Positions 4,055 to 13,098 of a DNA stretch of 64,000 bases are shown piece after piece; the stretch's first letter is position 1; each line of letters opens with the position of its first letter. Source of the DNA: an uncultured bacterium (lineage in GTDB: Bacteria; Omnitrophota; Gorgyraeia; Duberdicusellales; CBEUCJ01). Under the pieces are notes generated by a model. That model ran no database searches and was not told the origin of the DNA. It was given only the letters and a program-made list of their open reading frames with translations. A program made the position numbers and the translations under genes. The stretch spans positions 21,167 to 85,166 of the forward strand of contig CBEUCJ010000004.1 of NCBI GenBank assembly GCA_965541615.1, given 5' to 3'.

Positions 4055-4939
4055 TTGAAGATAGTTTTTATGAGTGAGACAAACAGAAAAATAAAAGTGG
4101 AGGCGAATCTAACTAATACAGAATTACTGCAAATAAAAAAGGGAAGTGTATTCTTTGAAGCAAAAGAAGGAAAGATTAAGATAATTCATGACGATTTTTT
4201 AATGACAAACTTGATTAAAGAAAATTCAATCGATTTAATAGTAACTTCTCCTCCATATAATGTGGATATTCATTATAATTCATTTCAAGATGATATTCCT
4301 TATGAGAGATACCTTGAATTTACAGAAAAATGGTTAAAAAAGGCATTTACTTTAACAAAACCAGATGGAAGGATGTGTCTAAATATACCTTTAGATAAAA
4401 GCAAAGGTAGAAAAGGAGCAGGGTTTCAGACAGTTTATGCTGATATAGTAAATATTGCTAAAAAAGTAGGTTGGAAGTATTTTTCAACAATAATATGGAA
4501 TGAAGGGAATATATCCAGAAGAACTGCTTGGGGATCTTGGTTAAGTGCCAGAGCTCCTTATGTTATTGCTCCTGTGGAAGTAATTATAATTTTTTATAAA
4601 GAAAGATGGCAAAGGATAAAAAATGGGGAATCAGATATAAAAAGAGAGGAGTTTGTGGAATGGACTAATGGATTATGGACATTTCCAGGAGAAAGTAAGA
4701 AAAAAGTCGGACATCCTGCACCTTTTCCCGTCGAATTACCCAAAAGATGTATTAAACTCTTCAGTTTTGTAGGTGATACTGTATTAGATCCATTCTTAGG
4801 AAGCGGAAGTACTTTAATTGCATGTGCTTTATTAGACAGAAAGGGGATTGGAGTGGAGATAGATAAAAATTATTGCAAATTAGCTAAAAATAGATTGATA
4901 AAGGAATGTAAGATAAACCAGAAAAAGTTATGGGAATAA
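4055..4939 (+). CDS. DNA methyltransferase, beta-class amino-MTase (SPPY motif IV before FxGSG motif I), probably N4-cytosine
   Basis: Motifs SPPY (cat.) and DPFLGSGST (SAM binding) in beta-class order; ORF opens with TTG at 4055, first ATG at 4070. Confidence 0.75.
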   Translation: MKIVFMSETNRKIKVEANLTNTELLQIKKGSVFFEAKEGKIKIIHDDFLMTNLIKENSIDLIVTSPPYNVDIHYNSFQDDIPYERYLEFTEKWLKKAFTLTKPDGRMCLNIPLDKSKGRKGAGFQTVYADIVNIAKKVGWKYFSTIIWNEGNISRRTAWGSWLSARAPYVIAPVEVIIIFYKERWQRIKNGESDIKREEFVEWTNGLWTFPGESKKKVGHPAPFPVELPKRCIKLFSFVGDTVLDPFLGSGSTLIACALLDRKGIGVEIDKNYCKLAKNRLIKECKINQKKLWE

Positions 4940-5210: not shown

Positions 5211-5687
5211 TTGAAAAACAAGATTATAGCTATAATGGGAGAAGAGGCTTTAAATGCATATAAAGATCAGATAGTTATTAAAAACTGGTGCGATATTTTC
5301 CCTGATGTAGACATTCTTGTAATCGAAAAACAGACCAATTCAGTAATAGCTATTTTATCATGTAAAACCAGCTTAAGAGAAAGATTGACAGAGACAGCTT
5401 TTTGGAGAAGAGAACTTGAAAAGAAAAGGAGTACGAAAAAAATAAAGTTAGTTTTTATAACTACAGACAAGGATAATGAATTAAAGACAGAAACAAATCG
5501 TTATGTCCTCTTACATGTAGTTGACCATACTTTTATAACAGATCCAAAGAAATATAATGAATTGATAGAAGCATATAAAAAGAAATATGGTAATCGAGAT
5601 GATTTCTATAAACTTCTTATAAAAATTGAATTTATAGATAAAATAAAGGGCTTTATAGAGCTTCTTCTAAATAGGCAAAATAATTGA
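5211..5687 (+). CDS. Putative restriction endonuclease partner of the MTase (start unresolved; the same frame is open from 4917 with no start codon)
   Basis: Adjacent and co-oriented with MTase; D…(D/E)xK-like segment (DVDILVIEKQ); about 98 stop-free upstream codons in an AT-rich genome. Confidence 0.35.
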   Translation: MKNKIIAIMGEEALNAYKDQIVIKNWCDIFPDVDILVIEKQTNSVIAILSCKTSLRERLTETAFWRRELEKKRSTKKIKLVFITTDKDNELKTETNRYVLLHVVDHTFITDPKKYNELIEAYKKKYGNRDDFYKLLIKIEFIDKIKGFIELLLNRQNN

Positions 5688-5768: not shown

Positions 5769-8700
5769 TTACTCTGAGAATATTTCTTTAAATATCTTTT
5801 TCTTCCATTTTTTGTATATCTTTTCCCACAGTTGCATCCATACTCCATGGACAGAGATTTGTTTGGTAACTTCATTGTTAGTTTCATTTACTTCACCTAT
5901 TTGGTTTTCAGGGTCTACTATTACTTTAAAGATCAGAGGTCCTGGTGTTTGTGGAGTATAAGAGAATGAGAAAGAAGATGAAGAGTTAGCTTTAAGTCTT
6001 GGTAAAATTTTGGTATGAATAGGAGTATTGTTTGCTTTGACCAGAACTTTAACATTGTTTAAGTCTATTTTCCCTGCGTTATGTACAGTTATAAATAAAT
6101 TAACAGGTTCTCTCACATTTACTTTCAGAGAAGGCTTTAAGATAAAATCTTGAGGATAAATGCTTAAATCTGCTCCTTTTTCTTGGAAATAGTAAGGAGG
6201 ATACTCTCCTCCTTTTACATAAAAATAACTCTCCTTTGTTATTTCTCTTACTATCTTACCAAAATATACTTGAGCAGTAGCGCGAATCTTAAATTTCCCT
6301 GGATATACTGCTTTATAAGGAAAAGTAACTTGGAACTCTCCTTTATTTACAACAGATGGCCAAACTTTTACATAACTTGCATATCCAAATTTAGGATCTC
6401 TTTCTTTTTCAACATTGATGATCTCTATTTTTACCACAATATTTCTTAAACTCCTTCCAGAGATGTTTTTAAATTGCGCACCTATACTTTTAGTTTCTCC
6501 TACTTTTATAGGAGTATCAGTTCCCCAAAATTTTGTAACCATAAGAGGAATTCTTTTCTGTATTTCTTTTTCTTTCTGCTTTCTTTTATATGCTTGTTGG
6601 ACTGCTTTTTCAAAATTTCCATAAGTATAAGTTACTTCATTGTTATCTTCATTTACTTCTCTTACTCTATTATAGGGATCAACACTGATCACCATTTTAA
6701 AAGGAGGCTTTTGTGAGTAATTTATAGAAAAATCACGATACTTTTTTGCAGGTATTATTCTTGCAAAACTTGCCAAAACTTTAGATTTTACTTCATTTTC
6801 TTCTATATAAAAAACTTTAAATTTAACCAAAGCAGTTGCAGATTTGGTACCTCTATTAAACACTCTAACTTTACAGCTCTTTCTATCAAGCTTGACATCT
6901 TCTTTTCTTAATACAAAATCGACTCCTTTAACAGGTAGAAATTCTGGAACAGATATTTTTTTGGAGATAACATTATCTTTTTCATTTAGATCTTTGTATC
7001 CTTTTGTTTTAAGAATAGCTTTTATTATGTGAGTTCCACTCTCAGCTTTCCATACAATTAAGTCATTTTCTGGTTTACCATCACCAATTATTATCTTTTC
7101 TCCTGCAGGAATCTTTGTAGAGATATGTTTTATTAATGCAGAATCTACATAAACAAAAATATCTACAGGAGCTTTTGCCTTTCCTTTATTACTAACATTG
7201 ATAAGAAATTTAACTTCATCTTTAGCTTGAAAAGATTCAGGATTAAATTCTAATGAATCTATAGATAAATCATACTCAGGTAAACCAACCTCAACAGTAA
7301 AATAAATACTATTGTTTGATTCATTAAGTTCAGATATTGAATTGTGGGGGTCTACTGTAACTTTAAATGTATATTTGCGAGCTTTATCGAAAGTATATTG
7401 AATACTCGCTATTCTATAAGAGTTTCTTTTAATATAAGGAATGAAAACAGAAGTTATAGGTTTACCATCCTTTTCAAATAAAACATGCACATTTTTTGCA
7501 GGTCTATTTCCAAAGTTATAAACTTTCACCCATATTCTGGTTGGAACTCCTATTTGAGGAGCACCTCCTTTTTCAGATTCTACTCCAAAACCAGGTTCTG
7601 CCAATTTTCCAGAGATTTCTTCAGTTTGTAATAAAAGGTCAGGTTCTGGTGCTATATATACAGACTCATAAGCAGAATTGTTATTTTCCTTAAGTTCATC
7701 GATCTTATTTTCAGAGTCGACTATAGCAACAAATTTGTGTTTACCTGTTCTTTTTATATTGTATGCAGTTTCAATAGCTATAGATTCCTCTTTTTTTAAT
7801 TCTTTTATTATCTGCTTAAAGATAATTTTCCCTCCACATTTGATAACAAAAGGAATTTCTGAAGCATCTATTGCTCCTTTATTTTCAATCACAGCTTTAA
7901 TATTTATTGATTCATCTAATTTAGGTTTTGAAGGAGTAATATCTATAGATTTTACAGTTAAATCAGGACGATTAGGGCCTACTCCTATAGGATAAGGAAG
8001 TCCTTCAGGTATCTCAATACTCACCTCTTTTATTCCTATCCCCCACTTACGTAGCTTTGGAACACTTTCACCTGAGAAACAACTTTTATGTTTATAAAAA
8101 TTTATACAAGCTCCTGCTTCGTTTACGGCTGCTCCTGCTGCAACTACAAGAGAATCAAGTGACACATAAACTCTATAAGTTTTTCCTGCCTCCACAGGTA
8201 CATTTTTAAATTCATACGTTATTTCTTTTGAAATTACTTCATCTGCATCTAAAGCATCTACAGTGTAATCTACAACATCTAATATAGTTCCTATACCTAC
8301 TACTCCTGTTGCTTCTTCTATAGCTTCACTTGCAACTGTTTGAGCGACTTCTTCAGCCCAATCTACCCATTCTTTTTTATTCGTTTTAGCCCAAATAACT
8401 TTTTCTACTATTGGTGAGTTTAAAGGACCTGTAGCTCCTTCATGGACTCCTACACTTATCTTTGCTTTATAAAAATTCTGACCACCAGCAAAAGAACTGG
8501 CATTAATTACTCCAAAAAGAGAGACTTTAAATCTAATATTTACTTTGAATTTTGTTCCAGGTTTTATATTAACGAAACCAAAGGTTTTATAATGATATGT
8601 TCTTAGAGAAGCACGGGCTCCACCTATCCAGGCAGTTGCTGAGCACCAGGATTTTATTCCTGGACTTCTTTGTTTCCATGCAAATTCAGCTGTAGCTTGA

Positions 8701-8843
8701 GCCCCAGATGGATCTTTTTTCTTTGATTCTTTATCTATGTAAACTCCTCCTCCATAAATTTCTGCTTTTTGAATAGGTTCTTTGGCATATATAAAAGGGA
8801 TGAAGATGATTATTAAGAATAAAATTACAGCTTTTTTCTTCAT
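5769..8843 (-). CDS. Large secreted surface protein with N-terminal signal peptide and at least 4-5 CARDB-like repeats
   Basis: Signal peptide MKKKAVILFLIIIFIPFIYA; repeated DP.N.I.E.NE.NN motifs typical of CARDB domains; only minus-strand gene in window. Confidence 0.7.
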   Translation of the reverse strand: MKKKAVILFLIIIFIPFIYAKEPIQKAEIYGGGVYIDKESKKKDPSGAQATAEFAWKQRSPGIKSWCSATAWIGGARASLRTYHYKTFGFVNIKPGTKFKVNIRFKVSLFGVINASSFAGGQNFYKAKISVGVHEGATGPLNSPIVEKVIWAKTNKKEWVDWAEEVAQTVASEAIEEATGVVGIGTILDVVDYTVDALDADEVISKEITYEFKNVPVEAGKTYRVYVSLDSLVVAAGAAVNEAGACINFYKHKSCFSGESVPKLRKWGIGIKEVSIEIPEGLPYPIGVGPNRPDLTVKSIDITPSKPKLDESINIKAVIENKGAIDASEIPFVIKCGGKIIFKQIIKELKKEESIAIETAYNIKRTGKHKFVAIVDSENKIDELKENNNSAYESVYIAPEPDLLLQTEEISGKLAEPGFGVESEKGGAPQIGVPTRIWVKVYNFGNRPAKNVHVLFEKDGKPITSVFIPYIKRNSYRIASIQYTFDKARKYTFKVTVDPHNSISELNESNNSIYFTVEVGLPEYDLSIDSLEFNPESFQAKDEVKFLINVSNKGKAKAPVDIFVYVDSALIKHISTKIPAGEKIIIGDGKPENDLIVWKAESGTHIIKAILKTKGYKDLNEKDNVISKKISVPEFLPVKGVDFVLRKEDVKLDRKSCKVRVFNRGTKSATALVKFKVFYIEENEVKSKVLASFARIIPAKKYRDFSINYSQKPPFKMVISVDPYNRVREVNEDNNEVTYTYGNFEKAVQQAYKRKQKEKEIQKRIPLMVTKFWGTDTPIKVGETKSIGAQFKNISGRSLRNIVVKIEIINVEKERDPKFGYASYVKVWPSVVNKGEFQVTFPYKAVYPGKFKIRATAQVYFGKIVREITKESYFYVKGGEYPPYYFQEKGADLSIYPQDFILKPSLKVNVREPVNLFITVHNAGKIDLNNVKVLVKANNTPIHTKILPRLKANSSSSFSFSYTPQTPGPLIFKVIVDPENQIGEVNETNNEVTKQISVHGVWMQLWEKIYKKWKKKIFKEIFSE

Positions 8844-8889
8844 TTTTGAATATTATTTTAACATAATTTTTTGTATAATTAAAATTACC

Positions 8890-9624
8890 ATGATGGAGAG
8901 AGAAGTGCATATTACTGCACGAGATTTGCTTAATTTTTTGCAATTTAAAGATGGTGATTTTGGAGAAATAGCTATCGTTAGTGGACAACCTCAAAGAGCT
9001 AAGATGATTTTAGAAAAATTAGAAAGACCTAAAAAGAATTTTACTTTTCTGACTTACACTTTTTGGACAGGTTTTTATAAAGAAAAAAGAGTTACAGTGG
9101 GAAACGCAGGATTTTATGCTCCAGATTCAGCGTTCTTAACTGAGATGCTATGTGAAGGAGGAGTAGAGGTTCTTATTAGGGTAGGGTCTTGTGGAGCTTT
9201 AAAAAGAGAGATAAAAATAGGTGATTTTATAATTGTAGATAAAGTATTAAGAGGAGATGGAGTAACTAAATATTATGTAGATGAAGATTTTTCTCCTATC
9301 TTAGATAAAGAGTTAATGCAGAATCTAAAATTAATCTTTGAAAGAGTAGGAAATGTGTATGTAGGTGGTGTATGGACTACAGATGCTTTACTTAGAGAGA
9401 AAAAAGAGATTGTAAATTTTTATATAGAAAAAGGAGCTATTAGTGTAGATATGGTAAGTAGCCCTTTTGTTGTAGTTTCTAATCTTTATAAAAAGAGAGT
9501 AGGAGTGGTTTTAATCGTTTCTGATAATCTTATTACTGGTGAGTTTGGTTTTAGAGATAATAGATTTTTTGAAGCTCAAAAAAAAGCAGCTGAAAACATT
9601 TTGAGAATAGTAGAACTCATATAA
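8890..9624 (+). CDS. Nucleoside phosphorylase family I protein (PNP/MTA phosphorylase-like)
   Basis: PNP_UDP_1-type sequence (…VSGQPQRAKM…GSCGAL…IGDFIIVD…); start taken at ATGATG 8890, not the upstream ATG at 8782. Confidence 0.7.
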   Translation: MMEREVHITARDLLNFLQFKDGDFGEIAIVSGQPQRAKMILEKLERPKKNFTFLTYTFWTGFYKEKRVTVGNAGFYAPDSAFLTEMLCEGGVEVLIRVGSCGALKREIKIGDFIIVDKVLRGDGVTKYYVDEDFSPILDKELMQNLKLIFERVGNVYVGGVWTTDALLREKKEIVNFYIEKGAISVDMVSSPFVVVSNLYKKRVGVVLIVSDNLITGEFGFRDNRFFEAQKKAAENILRIVELI

Positions 9625-9630
9625 ATAAAG

Positions 9631-10626
9631 ATGCAAAAGGATAAAATAAAAAAAGAGATAATCTATTGGGCAAAGCTCTTAAATCAAAAAAATTTAGTAA
9701 GTGCAAGGAGTGGAAATATTTCTTATAAACTTTCTGAAGACAAAATTCTAATCACTTCTCATGATTGTTATTTAGGAGATTTGAAAGAAGAAGATATTCT
9801 TTTAATCAGCAAGGAGGGAGAGATTTTAGAAGGAGAAAAAGAGATTACCAGTGAAAAAAAATTACATTTAGATATCTATAAAGAGATTGAAGATGCAAAG
9901 GTAATCTTACACGCACACCCTCCTTATACAGTAGCTTTCTTTCACTATTTTGACAAGTTAGATATATTTTCATTTGAAGCAAGATTCTATTTGGGAAATG
10001 TTAAAGTAATTTTACAGGAGACTCCAACAGTAATAGATACCAAACCTGTAATAGAAGCTTTGAAAGCAGTAAATATCGTCGTTTTGAAAGAACATGGAGT
10101 AGTAAGCATAGGTAGAGATTTTAGAGAAGCTTTAAGTTTAATAGAGCTTCTTGAAGAGCAGAGCAAGATAAATCTTTTAATAAGATCAGGTTTTTTAAAA
10201 GAAGAAAAAGAGTTTTTTAAAGATGAAGATAACCAAAAAGAGGTTAAGACTAAGTATAAGTTACTTTCATCAGAACATATCAAAAGATTAGTTGAGTTAG
10301 TAAATAATGACAGACAGACTCAAGAATTGGGAGAAAAATACGACTTAACTTGCACTTTAGCTATAAAAAATCAGGATTCTAAAAGAACAATCTGCTTTTA
10401 TTACAAAAAAGGAAAGATTACAAAAGTAGACAACAATGAATATGCTGAAATTTTGATTACTGGAAAAGAGGAGATTTTAAAAAAGATCTTTAATCAGGAT
10501 TTAGATCCTTTTGTAGCTGCAACTCACAGAAAGATAGAAATAAAAGGAAATTTCTCTAAGATAAGTATGTGGTATCAGGTTTTAGCAAGGATATTTACAA
10601 TATGGAAAAGAGCACCAGTAGAATAA
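9631..10626 (+). CDS. Class II aldolase/adducin-domain protein (MtnB/FucA-like) fused to a C-terminal SCP2 sterol-carrier-like domain
   Basis: N-terminal ARSGNIS…HAHPPYTVAF (class II aldolase metal-binding His); C-terminal …DPFVAATHRKIEIKGNFSKISMW… matches the SCP2 pattern. Confidence 0.6.
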   Translation: MQKDKIKKEIIYWAKLLNQKNLVSARSGNISYKLSEDKILITSHDCYLGDLKEEDILLISKEGEILEGEKEITSEKKLHLDIYKEIEDAKVILHAHPPYTVAFFHYFDKLDIFSFEARFYLGNVKVILQETPTVIDTKPVIEALKAVNIVVLKEHGVVSIGRDFREALSLIELLEEQSKINLLIRSGFLKEEKEFFKDEDNQKEVKTKYKLLSSEHIKRLVELVNNDRQTQELGEKYDLTCTLAIKNQDSKRTICFYYKKGKITKVDNNEYAEILITGKEEILKKIFNQDLDPFVAATHRKIEIKGNFSKISMWYQVLARIFTIWKRAPVE

Positions 10627-10678: not shown

Positions 10679-10707
10679 CTTGACAAAGAGGTTAAAGGTG
10701 TTAATAT
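10679..10707 (+). promoter_or_regulatory. Sigma70-like promoter TTGACA-17-TAATAT upstream of the lpt genes
   Basis: Near-consensus hexamers with 17-bp spacer, 14 nt upstream of ATG 10721. Confidence 0.35.
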
Positions 10708-10720
10708 AGATTAGTTTTTG

Positions 10721-11476
10721 ATGAAAAAATTTTTAGAATTATTTATCTTACTTTTAATTTTAGGAGCTTCACCTCAGAGAGTCATAAAAGATTTTCATCT
10801 TTTAGGTTTTGATAAAAATGGGAATAGAAATTATGAGCTTTGGGCACAAAGAGCAGAGATTTTTGAGAAGAAAGTAAAGATGCACAAGATCACAGCAAAT
10901 CTCTATGGAGAGAAAACTGTTCTCATAAAAGCAGAAAAAGCTTTCTTAGATGAAGATGCACAAAATTTAAAATTAGAGAAAAATGTAAATATAACTTCAG
11001 AAGATAAACTTTTGCTCACTCAAAGTCTGGATTGGGATATAAAAGAGAATAAAGCAAAAACCTCTTCACAAGTAGAGATTGAAGAACCTGAGTTCACAAT
11101 TAAAGCTACAGGTTTAGAAGCAGATTTAAATAATAAAAAAACTATTTTAAAAAATAAAGTTAGTCTCTCTTTTAAAAAAAGAGTGTTTACATCTGTTAGT
11201 TGCCAAGGTCCTATGGAGATAGATTACAAAAATAATATAGCTATTCTTTATAATAAAGTCAAAGTAGATGATACAGAAGGTCAAATTTTTTCAGATAAAA
11301 TGGAAGTTTATTTTGATCCTGAAAGCAAAAAGATAAAAAAAATTAGAGCTTTAGGCAATGTAAAGATAGTAAGAACAGATTCAGTAACTTATGCCAAAGA
11401 AGCTGAGTTCGATGTTAATTCAAAAAAACTAACTTTAAAAGGGAACCCTAGATTATTAATAATCTCTGAGAGATGA
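10721..11476 (+). CDS. LptC/LptA-family (OstA-like) LPS transport protein, N-terminally anchored
   Basis: Signal/anchor helix; OstA-like beta-jellyroll sequence; immediately upstream of lptB. Confidence 0.6.
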   Translation: MKKFLELFILLLILGASPQRVIKDFHLLGFDKNGNRNYELWAQRAEIFEKKVKMHKITANLYGEKTVLIKAEKAFLDEDAQNLKLEKNVNITSEDKLLLTQSLDWDIKENKAKTSSQVEIEEPEFTIKATGLEADLNNKKTILKNKVSLSFKKRVFTSVSCQGPMEIDYKNNIAILYNKVKVDDTEGQIFSDKMEVYFDPESKKIKKIRALGNVKIVRTDSVTYAKEAEFDVNSKKLTLKGNPRLLIISER

Positions 11477-12198: not shown

Positions 12199-13098
12199 AT
12201 GAGAGCAGAGATAAAAAAAATAGATGCTACTAAAAGAGAGATATTAATAGAATTAGAGAAAGATTCTTTAGAAAAAGAATGGGATAGAGTTTACAAGGAA
12301 ATTTCTCAGGAAGTAAAAATACCAGGTTTTAGACCTGGAAAAGCTCCTCGTGAGATTTTAGAAAAGAATTACAAAGATTTGGCAAAAAAGAAATTAGCTG
12401 AATCACTAATCCCCAAATTATATGAAGAAGTTATAAAAAAAGAGAATCTAAAACCTTTGAGTTTACCTGAATTTAAAGATCTAAAGATAGAAGATGATTA
12501 TCTTAAATTTTCAGCTTTTGTGGAGGTAAAACCCCAGATTTCAATAAAAGATTATTATGGAATCTCTTTAAAATTTGAAGATATAGAAGTAAAGGATTCT
12601 GAAATAGAAGCAGCTTTAAAAAATTTGAGAGAATATTTTAAAAAAGAGCAGACTTTAGAGCTACCTCAAGATGCAGAAGAGAGAGCTTTATGCAAAAATT
12701 TTTATTGTAAAAACATAGAAGAATTAAAAGAGTGGATAAAAGCTCAAATTTATTTGCAAAAATATGAATCTAGGAAGAGAAGGATCCAATCCCAAATAGA
12801 AGAAAAGTTATTAAAAGAAAATAAAGTAGAGGTTCCTAAAAAAGCATTAGAAGCTCACCATCAGAGATTAGTAGAAGAAGCAATTTCAAATTTAAGATTT
12901 CAAGGAGTGCCTGAAGAAGAGATAGAAAAAAGAAAAAAGGATATAAAAGAAAAATTAAAACCTGTAGCTGAAAAACAACTCAAAATTTATTTCCTTTTAG
13001 AAACGATAGCTGAAAAAGAAGGAATTAAAATAGATGAGTCTGAAGATTTGATAGAGAAAGTTCTTTCATTTTTAGTGAGCAAGAGTAAATCAGAGTAA
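12199..13098 (+). CDS. tig: Trigger factor-like chaperone lacking the PPIase domain (N-terminal ribosome-binding and C-terminal arm only)
   Basis: TF signature GFRPGKAP at about residue 43; only 299 aa; located immediately upstream of clpP as in canonical tig-clpP. Confidence 0.65.
   Translation: MRAEIKKIDATKREILIELEKDSLEKEWDRVYKEISQEVKIPGFRPGKAPREILEKNYKDLAKKKLAESLIPKLYEEVIKKENLKPLSLPEFKDLKIEDDYLKFSAFVEVKPQISIKDYYGISLKFEDIEVKDSEIEAALKNLREYFKKEQTLELPQDAEERALCKNFYCKNIEELKEWIKAQIYLQKYESRKRRIQSQIEEKLLKENKVEVPKKALEAHHQRLVEEAISNLRFQGVPEEEIEKRKKDIKEKLKPVAEKQLKIYFLLETIAEKEGIKIDESEDLIEKVLSFLVSKSKSE

Follow-up and report, generated by a model that had tools for sequence, protein, structure and literature searches.

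The genes examined here lie on a 64,000-nucleotide stretch (the window) of contig CBEUCJ010000004.1, from an uncultured bacterium of the Omnitrophota (GenBank assembly GCA_965541615.1). A phosphorylase gene is followed, after an intergenic gap of 6 bp, by a gene for a class II aldolase fused to an SCP2 domain. Both had been recognised in a preliminary description of the window made from the sequence, whose coordinates proved exact and whose domains were recovered as matches to PF01048, PF00596 and PF02036. The parts of the pair are as follows.

8890..9624, plus strand: phosphorylase gene, an open reading frame (ORF) of 244 amino acids with ATG at 8890, PNP_UDP_1 family
9631..10626, plus strand: aldolase-SCP2 fusion gene, a single ORF of 331 amino acids with ATG at 9631
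9631..10191, plus strand: class II (metal-dependent) aldolase domain, residues 1-187
9853-9855 (E75), 9910-9912 (H94), 9916-9918 (H96) and 10093-10095 (H155), plus strand: catalytic and metal-binding codons
10192..10263, plus strand: Lys/Glu-rich flexible linker, residues 188-211
10264..10626, plus strand: SCP2 domain and stop codon, residues 212-331

Homologues of the phosphorylase begin at the same Met as the ATG at 8890, so a TTG start at 8782, which would give a longer ORF, is unlikely. The fusion ORF is read in one frame from 9631 to 10626 without an internal stop codon or frameshift. A search of 5.8 billion proteins yielded 247 relatives of the fusion, and the best 120 were inspected. 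Nearly all of these are 320-345 amino acids long (with a few fragments and one longer gene call), most carry both Pfam domains in precomputed annotation, and every named one comes from metagenome-assembled genomes (MAGs) of Candidatus Omnitrophota (Omnitrophica), where it is annotated as 'class II aldolase/adducin family protein' or 'L-fuculose-phosphate aldolase'. Furthermore, in GTDB contigs at one genome per species, 112 stretches encode a relative of the fusion, and 80 loci (denoted by L and a number) were fetched. Most of these came from Omnitrophota; a few MAGs carry the labels Desulfobacterota, Deferribacterales, Elusimicrobia or Victivallales. The exact fusion protein of the window also occurs on a 5.2-kb contig of an independent Logan assembly, with the same neighbours. 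Three aldolase-only relatives (L049, L052 and L080), 62-69% identical to the N-terminal domain, truly lack SCP2; neither a split SCP2 ORF nor informative neighbours were found beside them, the surroundings being housekeeping genes. In one 694-residue protein (P0125), a radical SAM-like N-terminal region precedes a truncated aldolase and SCP2; this is probably an assembly or gene-call chimera, not a second architecture.

An AlphaFold2 model of the fusion protein, built on a 37-sequence alignment, contains two well-folded domains (pLDDT 89.5) separated by a linker that is variable in length and sequence among homologues and disordered at residues 189-198 (pLDDT <50). The linker starts at the position of the C-terminal tail of FucA (F206, Y209), which is replaced here by linker and SCP2. 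The peptide DPFVAATHRKIEIKGNFSKISMW, quoted earlier for the SCP2 domain, is present in the fusion protein. PF02036 (SCP2) matches residues 227-310. The full-length protein scores 21.0 bits, marginally short of the gathering cut-off (21.3), and the C-terminal 128 residues by themselves score 23.3 bits; homologous C-terminal domains matched SCP2 in 20 of 20 cases (best E 7.9e-9). Because a fold search with the full-length model returned aldolases only, the C-terminal domain was modelled by itself (pLDDT 94.2). Foldseek then aligned it with Thermus thermophilus SCP2 (2cx7, TMq 0.82) among 40 SCP2-type PDB matches at E<=1e-3, others being 1wfr, UbiJ-SCP2, AF1534, the C-terminal domains of alkylsulfatases, and human, yeast and insect SCP2. 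By Pfam and by predicted fold the domain is a true SCP2, as the preliminary description had it. The canonical SCP2 signature, QGK-K-KG(D/N), corresponds to HRKIEIKGN in the window.

These results bear on whether two genes were joined by a sequencing or assembly error, or whether the SCP2 match is a weak coincidence. Apart from the full-length score, which falls 0.3 bits under the Pfam cut-off, the evidence runs the other way: the SCP2 fold is confidently predicted, the gene has a single frame, and the same architecture is found in more than 120 clusters of full-length homologues and in the 112 species genomes. A mis-join is set aside because the architecture recurs in more than 100 species genomes from independent assemblies. 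The preliminary description had named a frameshift between mis-joined genes, or a C-terminal domain that fails to score as SCP2, as grounds for giving up the fusion; neither was found, and we attach next to no weight to an artefact.

A phmmer search of 1.84 billion representative sequences with the C-terminal domain found just 57 relatives, mostly aldolase fusions of 320-340 amino acids or fragments, and no fusion partner other than the aldolase. Judged from this distribution, the SCP2 subfamily is essentially private to the aldolase fusion. A C-terminal SCP2 on a catalytic domain, or SCP2 as an accessory, is familiar from the alkylsulfatases SdsA1 and Pisa1, MFE-2, SCPx, UbiJ/UbiT and Thermus SCP2, in which hydrophobic substrates are recruited or held; the partner here, in contrast, is a sugar-phosphate aldolase. 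The fusion had been called unfamiliar, and a literature search for 'class II aldolase' with 'SCP2' yielded no description of it.

The N-terminal domain matches PF00596 (Aldolase_II) over residues 9-181 (E=1.6e-33; 116.6 bits against a cut-off of 22.2), which places it in that family. In the full-length fold search its target-normalised TM-score (TMt) was about 0.8 to FucA, DrdA and Thermus FucA. Residues E75, H94, H96, H155 and N29 are invariant in 37 homologues, T73/S74 are kept, and the five invariant residues align with FucA E73, H92, H94, H155 and N29. The numbering of the FucA sequence used is consistent with the mutants named among the PDB entries. In this alignment the metal site and the general base are intact. 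E. coli FucA (1fua and its mutants) shares fold, Zn ligands, catalytic Glu and Asn with the fusion; it differs in that its lactaldehyde-pocket residues Y113 and F131 and its tail residues F206/Y209 are replaced, and in that no fucose genes lie near the fusion. The best NCBIfam models were the archaeal-type 'aldolase' PRK08660, PRK08333 and FucA_Meth, all at about 100 bits and all below cut-off. The top PDB sequence match was 6BTD/6BTG at 57 bits, followed by aq_1979 (54) and FucA (51). PMC6079011 identifies 6BTD/6BTG as DrdA from Bacillus thuringiensis, an aldolase acting on 5-deoxyribulose-1-phosphate.

The phosphorylase is a member of the PNP_UDP_1 superfamily (PF01048, E=1.1e-32). Among NCBIfam models it scored 96 and 90 bits with DeoD (below the cut-offs of 230 and 232), 86 bits with Udp, 33 bits with HpnG and 18 bits with MtnP (TIGR01694, cut-off 275). 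Its best PDB matches, at about 80 bits each, were the DeoD-type purine nucleoside phosphorylases (PNPs) of Bacillus (1xe3/2ac7) and the hexameric methylthioadenosine phosphorylase (MTAP) of S. solfataricus (1jds). These scores place it in the hexameric DeoD/Udp/Sulfolobus-MTAP branch and not with the MtnP type. Of the original wording, 'nucleoside or MTA phosphorylase' (MTA, methylthioadenosine), the part that survives is thus a DeoD-type enzyme near hexameric Sulfolobus MTAP, and MtnP falls away. Sequence comparison further indicates a divergent Omnitrophota subfamily; the family has 1434 matches and bears the NCBI name 'hypothetical protein'. Aligned to B. cereus PNP, the protein keeps the phosphate-site Gly and Arg, the R-GSCG motif and the purine-contacting S-D. 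In E. coli DeoD numbering, the equivalents of Gly20, Arg24, Arg87, Ser90, Met180 and Asp204 are present. In this subfamily the N-terminal His is followed by an insertion of about 11 residues.

To characterise the gene neighbourhood, ORFs were called in the fetched loci and clustered, and representatives were annotated; the counts cover 75 SCP2-bearing loci from GTDB species genomes. Upstream of the fusion, an MtnA-like IF-2B isomerase is encoded no more than 2.5 kb away in 63 of 68 loci, and the phosphorylase family of the window no more than 5 kb away in 36 of 61, usually just 5' of the isomerase. Downstream, 56 of 64 loci have an aldehyde dehydrogenase at a distance of up to 6 kb. The hint at an MTA-shunt-like pathway given in the preliminary description is supported, for the relatives, by these counts. 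The isomerase scores 165 and 152 bits with MtnA models as against 76 with ribose-1,5-bisphosphate isomerase, and, its motifs being read by eye, it retains the Cys and Asp of the MtnA catalytic motifs (TICN, GADR) known from B. subtilis MtnA. The aldehyde dehydrogenase resembles lactaldehyde dehydrogenase among others. Most fetched loci also contain, between isomerase and fusion and often with overlapping ends, a half-size isomerase paralogue of about 150-165 amino acids. It is 27% identical to the Rossmann-like half of the isomerase, lacks the catalytic Cys and Asp, and has no match in Pfam or NCBIfam; it may be a non-catalytic partner subunit. Seven loci carry further genes after the fusion, encoding an LsrF-like 3-hydroxy-5-phosphonooxypentane-2,4-dione thiolase (349 bits, cut-off 297) and a Zn-dependent dehydrogenase. 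Coordinates of these additional genes are given below.

L005:9529-9984, L010:6714-7190 and L077:9499-9984: half-size isomerase paralogue, directly upstream of the fusion
L024:12459-14334: LsrF-like thiolase and Zn-dependent dehydrogenase; also in L006, L014, L016, L018, L023 and L028

Not all loci share this order. L012 resembles the window in that the fusion comes directly after the phosphorylase, and 6 kb separate the isomerase genes from the fusion in L018. Since these three arrangements deviate, the pathway genes can evidently disperse. Sequence and fold establish the domain identities, the catalytic residues, the architecture and the gene order.

In the literature, 5-deoxyribose salvage and the dihydroxyacetone phosphate (DHAP) shunt are recognised by a trio of phosphorylase, isomerase and class II aldolase (Beaudoin 2018, PMC6079011), and gene order in the relatives agrees with this. 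We consider it probable, with some reservation, that the pair encodes the first and last enzymes of such a 5-deoxyribose-salvage-type route, whose aldolase gained an SCP2 domain in Candidatus Omnitrophota. In a first step the DeoD-type phosphorylase would use phosphate to cleave a 5'-deoxy-5'-substituted purine nucleoside to a 5-substituted ribose-1-phosphate. The substrate would be 5'-deoxyadenosine or MTA, derived from S-adenosylmethionine (SAM) and radical SAM enzymes, or an analogue. Radical SAM enzymes generate 5'-deoxyadenosine. The MtnA-like isomerase, encoded upstream of the aldolase in almost all relatives and not in the window, would then form the ribulose-1-phosphate, and the metal-dependent aldolase domain would cut the C3-C4 bond to release DHAP and an aldehyde, R-CH2-CHO. 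In the relatives, the aldehyde dehydrogenase would finally oxidise this aldehyde to the acid. We infer the substrates, the direction of the reactions and the role of SCP2.

The LsrF-like thiolase would fit the same route. Oxidation of 5-deoxyribulose-1-phosphate at C4 would yield the substrate of LsrF, which suggests a thiolytic branch with DHAP and acetyl-CoA (or an acyl-CoA) as products. This would be a second hint at a 5-deoxy-pentulose-1-phosphate as the shared intermediate.

The likeness to the DHAP shunt as described (MtnP or MtnN+MtnK/DrdK, MtnA/DrdI, Ald2/DrdA; PMC6079011, and in E. coli PMC10986504) extends to the enzyme trio in one operon in relatives, to DrdA as the best solved relative of the aldolase domain, and to the link with radical SAM enzymes. 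The Omnitrophota genes differ in the SCP2 domain, in an altered aldehyde pocket and phosphate loop, and in a DeoD-type phosphorylase in place of MtnP. Furthermore, the relatives add the half-size isomerase paralogue, the aldehyde dehydrogenase and a setting of type II polyketide synthase (PKS)-like and lipid-export genes, and the window is without the isomerase.

The preliminary description had spoken of a 'methionine-salvage-like or MTA-shunt' pathway. The second half agrees with the DHAP-shunt order in relatives; classical methionine salvage, in which the aldolase-like domain would be the MtnB dehydratase acting on methylthioribulose-1-phosphate, does not hold up. An MtnA-like gene does adjoin the fusion in relatives, and the second-best PDB match, aq_1979, is an MtnB-like protein. 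The matches to MtnB models are weak, at 61.5 bits with TIGR03328 and 59 with NF006672, far under the respective cut-offs (137 and 226). In the scanned set of conserved neighbour families, no mtnC, mtnD, mtnW or mtnX was identified; enolase-phosphatase, dioxygenase and the aminotransferase of the pathway are missing there, and an aldehyde dehydrogenase is found instead. Some loci do carry a class IV aminotransferase, of the branched-chain aminotransferase/aminodeoxychorismate lyase (BCAT/ADC-lyase) type. The dioxygenase step of methionine salvage moreover requires O2, and Omnitrophota are largely anaerobic, which also counts against an MtnB function. Taken together, this makes methionine salvage highly improbable.

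The operon of the relatives is part of a conserved supercluster of about 20 genes, which Omnitrophota share with a few other phyla. The order of its modules changes from one lineage to another, yet they remain linked. It is seen in L005, L013, L024, L034, L060, L077, L079 and L086, and comprises the following modules.

Module: PadR, a long-chain-fatty-acid-CoA-ligase-like gene (437 bits), often a B12 radical SAM gene, and the phosphorylase
Module: a DUF2621-like gene, an unknown gene and an ApbA-like reductase
Module: ketosynthase (KS), Cys-less KS resembling a chain-length factor (CLF), acyl carrier protein (ACP), PF04199 cyclase, SRPBCC, MFS and SDR
Module: B12 radical SAM (BchE/HpnJ-like), Amidohydro_2 and class IV aminotransferase
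Module: isomerase, half-size paralogue, fusion and aldehyde dehydrogenase
Module: HAE3/MMPL transporter, LolA-like protein (DUF1329) and DUF1302

Two B12-binding, BchE/HpnJ-like radical SAM genes belong to the supercluster, and B12-binding radical SAM genes were present in 24 of the 29 loci with long flanks. Further out lie housekeeping genes. Where the phosphorylase and the fusion are not neighbours, the phosphorylase keeps its place, with the ligase on one side and the DUF2621-like and ApbA genes on the other. KS-CLF pairs of Candidatus Omnitrophica appear in a catalogue of type II PKSs with no product known (PMC10132072). In the window, as in L041, L047 and L048, the fusion lies far from any such cluster.

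In the proposed salvage-type route, SCP2 would most likely bind or channel a hydrophobic aldehyde or 5-substituent, or dock the enzyme to the lipid/polyketide machinery encoded nearby in relatives, by analogy with other SCP2 proteins. A hydrophobic aldehyde or 5-substituent, in line with the hydrophobic substrate or product suggested in the preliminary description, is plausible because SCP2 takes the position of the FucA pocket lid, because it recruits hydrophobic ligands elsewhere, and because of the neighbourhood of ligase, KS, ACP and exporter.

The same neighbourhood would also suit a biosynthetic module. Here a radical SAM enzyme of the cluster would couple a hydrophobic precursor to the 5'-deoxyadenosyl group, much as hopene is treated by HpnH and a chorismate derivative by MqnE. 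Phosphorylase, isomerase, aldolase-SCP2 and aldehyde dehydrogenase would trim the adduct to R-CH2-COOH, a two-carbon extension. The acyl-CoA ligase would activate the acid for KS/CLF/ACP, the product would leave by MMPL/LolA-like export, and SCP2 would hold the lipid tail. Several features are in line with this scheme. SCP2 is a lipid- and acyl-CoA-binding fold in all other enzyme fusions among the structural matches (alkylsulfatases, MFE-2, UbiJ); the supercluster combines ligase, KS and Cys-less CLF, ACP, cyclases, SRPBCC, HAE3/MMPL, LolA-like protein and DUF1302; and the ligase remains beside the phosphorylase even where both are remote from the aldolase. A precedent for biosynthetic use exists in the formation of fluoroacetate from 5'-fluorodeoxyadenosine, which employs the same four enzyme types including an aldehyde dehydrogenase (PMC3999930). 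Because that pathway does so, the route as such can serve biosynthesis. In Streptomyces cattleya and Nocardia brasiliensis it consists of FlB, the isomerase for 5-fluoro-5-deoxyribose-1-phosphate (5-FDRP), a fuculose-type aldolase and fluoroacetaldehyde dehydrogenase, with the same chemical order and a carboxylic acid at the end. It differs in having a phosphorylase of another type and no SCP2.

Other points caution against a hydrophobic substrate and tell against the biosynthetic module alike. The radical SAM genes encode B12-binding, BchE/HpnJ-like enzymes rather than the known adenosylating kinds (HpnH, MqnE), and B12-type radical SAM enzymes are not known to adenosylate. In the window, L041, L047 and L048 the fusion is retained outside the cluster. 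The SCP2-less aldolase relatives have the same pocket residues. Against the biosynthetic module there is also the low score of the phosphorylase with HpnG (33 bits). On this evidence, a biosynthetic module is unlikely, though it deserves serious thought. Slightly less credit is given to a more specific idea, that an 'adenosyl handle' is used as a device rather than recycled as waste, so that a carboxymethyl extension would lead to an exported outer-membrane lipid or polyketide of Omnitrophota.

Two further known systems were considered. In the adenosylhopane route (HpnH, HpnG, HpnN), a lipid-nucleoside adduct is likewise handled by a radical SAM enzyme, a PNP_UDP_1 enzyme and an MMPL/RND exporter. 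Membership in it is rejected on the scores (33 bits for HpnG, 72 bits for HpnN); the radical SAM genes are of the BchE/HpnJ-like B12 kind and no squalene-hopene cyclase was seen, so that the resemblance is an analogy only. A fluorinase- or chlorinase-type origin of the substrate finds no support either: no DUF62-type gene was seen in the conserved cluster families scanned, and the outer flanks consist of housekeeping genes.

Ordinary catabolism of nucleosides or deoxy-sugars is a further alternative: ribose-1-phosphate from the phosphorylase would pass to ribulose-1-phosphate, or a fuculose or rhamnulose phosphate would be used, and the aldolase would split these to DHAP and glycolaldehyde or lactaldehyde, to be oxidised by the dehydrogenase. 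The purine-contacting Asp kept by the DeoD-like phosphorylase, the 99 bits of the aldolase with the methanogen FucA model (and, weakly, 47 bits with haloarchaeal ribulose-1-phosphate aldolase) and the resemblance of the dehydrogenase to lactaldehyde dehydrogenase are compatible with it. The isomerase, however, is nearer to MtnA than to ribose-1,5-bisphosphate isomerase, and the neighbours are radical SAM and lipid/polyketide genes. Furthermore, the loci contain no ribose-1-phosphate kinase, no phosphatase for ribulose-1,5-bisphosphate (RuBP), no fucose or rhamnose isomerase or kinase, and no sugar transporter. We judge this kind of catabolism improbable.

A number of observations weigh against the salvage-type route itself. 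On the side of the aldolase, the aldehyde pocket of FucA is not preserved: Y113 is replaced by F115, beside an invariant E116, and F131 by P132. (Placing FucA Tyr113 in the APY motif, which would make Q129 its counterpart, was rejected; Tyr113 lies in AIHYM in the FucA sequence, so that it corresponds to F115.) The second phosphate loop reads T-S-H-D compared with T-P-T-G in FucA, the lead of DrdA over aq_1979 and FucA is small (2-6 bits), and the class II aldolase fold also occurs in dehydratases, epimerases, decarboxylases and oxygenases. On the side of the phosphorylase, the equivalent of Arg43, the inter-subunit phosphate-binding residue, is absent, and the equivalent of Glu181 is Val, with an Asp two residues earlier. 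The E-M-E ribose motif of DeoD, Udp and MTAN enzymes thereby becomes V-D-M-V, and these changes are common to 48 family members. Both proteins miss the curated NCBIfam models by wide margins. A small aldehyde such as acetaldehyde would give no obvious reason for an SCP2 domain. Finally, the pathway is incomplete as visible in the window: MtnA/IF-2B, aldehyde dehydrogenase, MtnK, the ligase, a cluster-type radical SAM gene and an exporter are all absent from the 64 kb. In a tblastn search of the window with IF-2B, aldehyde dehydrogenase, ligase, radical SAM, MMPL and 35 further neighbour families, the only matches besides the pair were housekeeping genes of fatty acid synthesis (FAS) at 29.2-33.1 kb.

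Within the window, upstream of the pair are the pstSCAB-phoU operon, a small restriction-modification pair and a CARDB gene on the opposite strand; downstream are lptC/A-like, lptB, tig and clpP genes. Individual features of the surroundings are listed below.

4055-4939 and 5211-5687, plus strand: N4/N6 DNA methyltransferase and BsaWI-like restriction endonuclease, just upstream of the pair
5769-8843, minus strand: 1024-residue CARDB-repeat surface protein, the only large minus-strand gene in the region
8858..8885, plus strand: promoter-like site TTAACA-16 nt-TAAAAT, just 5' of the phosphorylase start codon, 10/12 match
10680-10707: second promoter-like site, preceding the gene downstream of the fusion
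10718-11476, plus strand: one 252-residue ORF with an LptC domain and an LptA/LptD_N (OstA) domain, an LptC-LptA fusion directly 5' of lptB
12199-13098, plus strand: trigger factor of just 299 amino acids with Trigger_N and Trigger_C, for which precomputed Pfam annotation of the identical gene in L087 records no peptidyl-prolyl isomerase (PPIase) domain

The site at 8858..8885 lends weak support to a separate two-gene operon, the number of promoter-like sites in the region being not above the shuffled expectation. A scan with Rfam for riboswitches upstream, in the window and seven loci, found none. Lying between the pst operon and the phosphorylase-aldolase pair, the restriction-modification genes and the CARDB gene may represent a segment that is variable or was inserted. 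Almost all ORFs of at least 100 amino acids in the window lie on the plus strand, and GC skew is positive in all 2-kb bins but the one with the CARDB gene. The window lies inside a single replichore of a strongly strand-biased, low-GC genome. The GC content of about 30% (27-34%), the mostly one-strand genes and best relatives of 64-72% identity together point to a poorly sampled Omnitrophota lineage.

The type of pathway is known. What is new is that its aldolase is fused to SCP2, that the isomerase has a half-size paralogue, and that the genes are embedded in a type II PKS-like/lipid-export cluster. Among the papers searched, the only Omnitrophota one to mention methylthioadenosine is silent on these genes. 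The DHAP shunt, described only recently, is a widespread means of disposing of the toxic SAM by-products 5'-deoxyadenosine and MTA, and its Omnitrophota variant is conserved across the sample of the phylum examined, an uncultured and largely host-dependent group. If SCP2 takes a hydrophobic aldehyde, shunt chemistry would reach lipid-sized substrates and would link nucleoside trimming with lipid or polyketide assembly. On a conservative reading, hundreds of Omnitrophota genomes gain functional names for entries now called 'hypothetical protein' or 'L-fuculose-phosphate aldolase', and the results draw attention to an uncharacterised, conserved cluster of about 20 genes.

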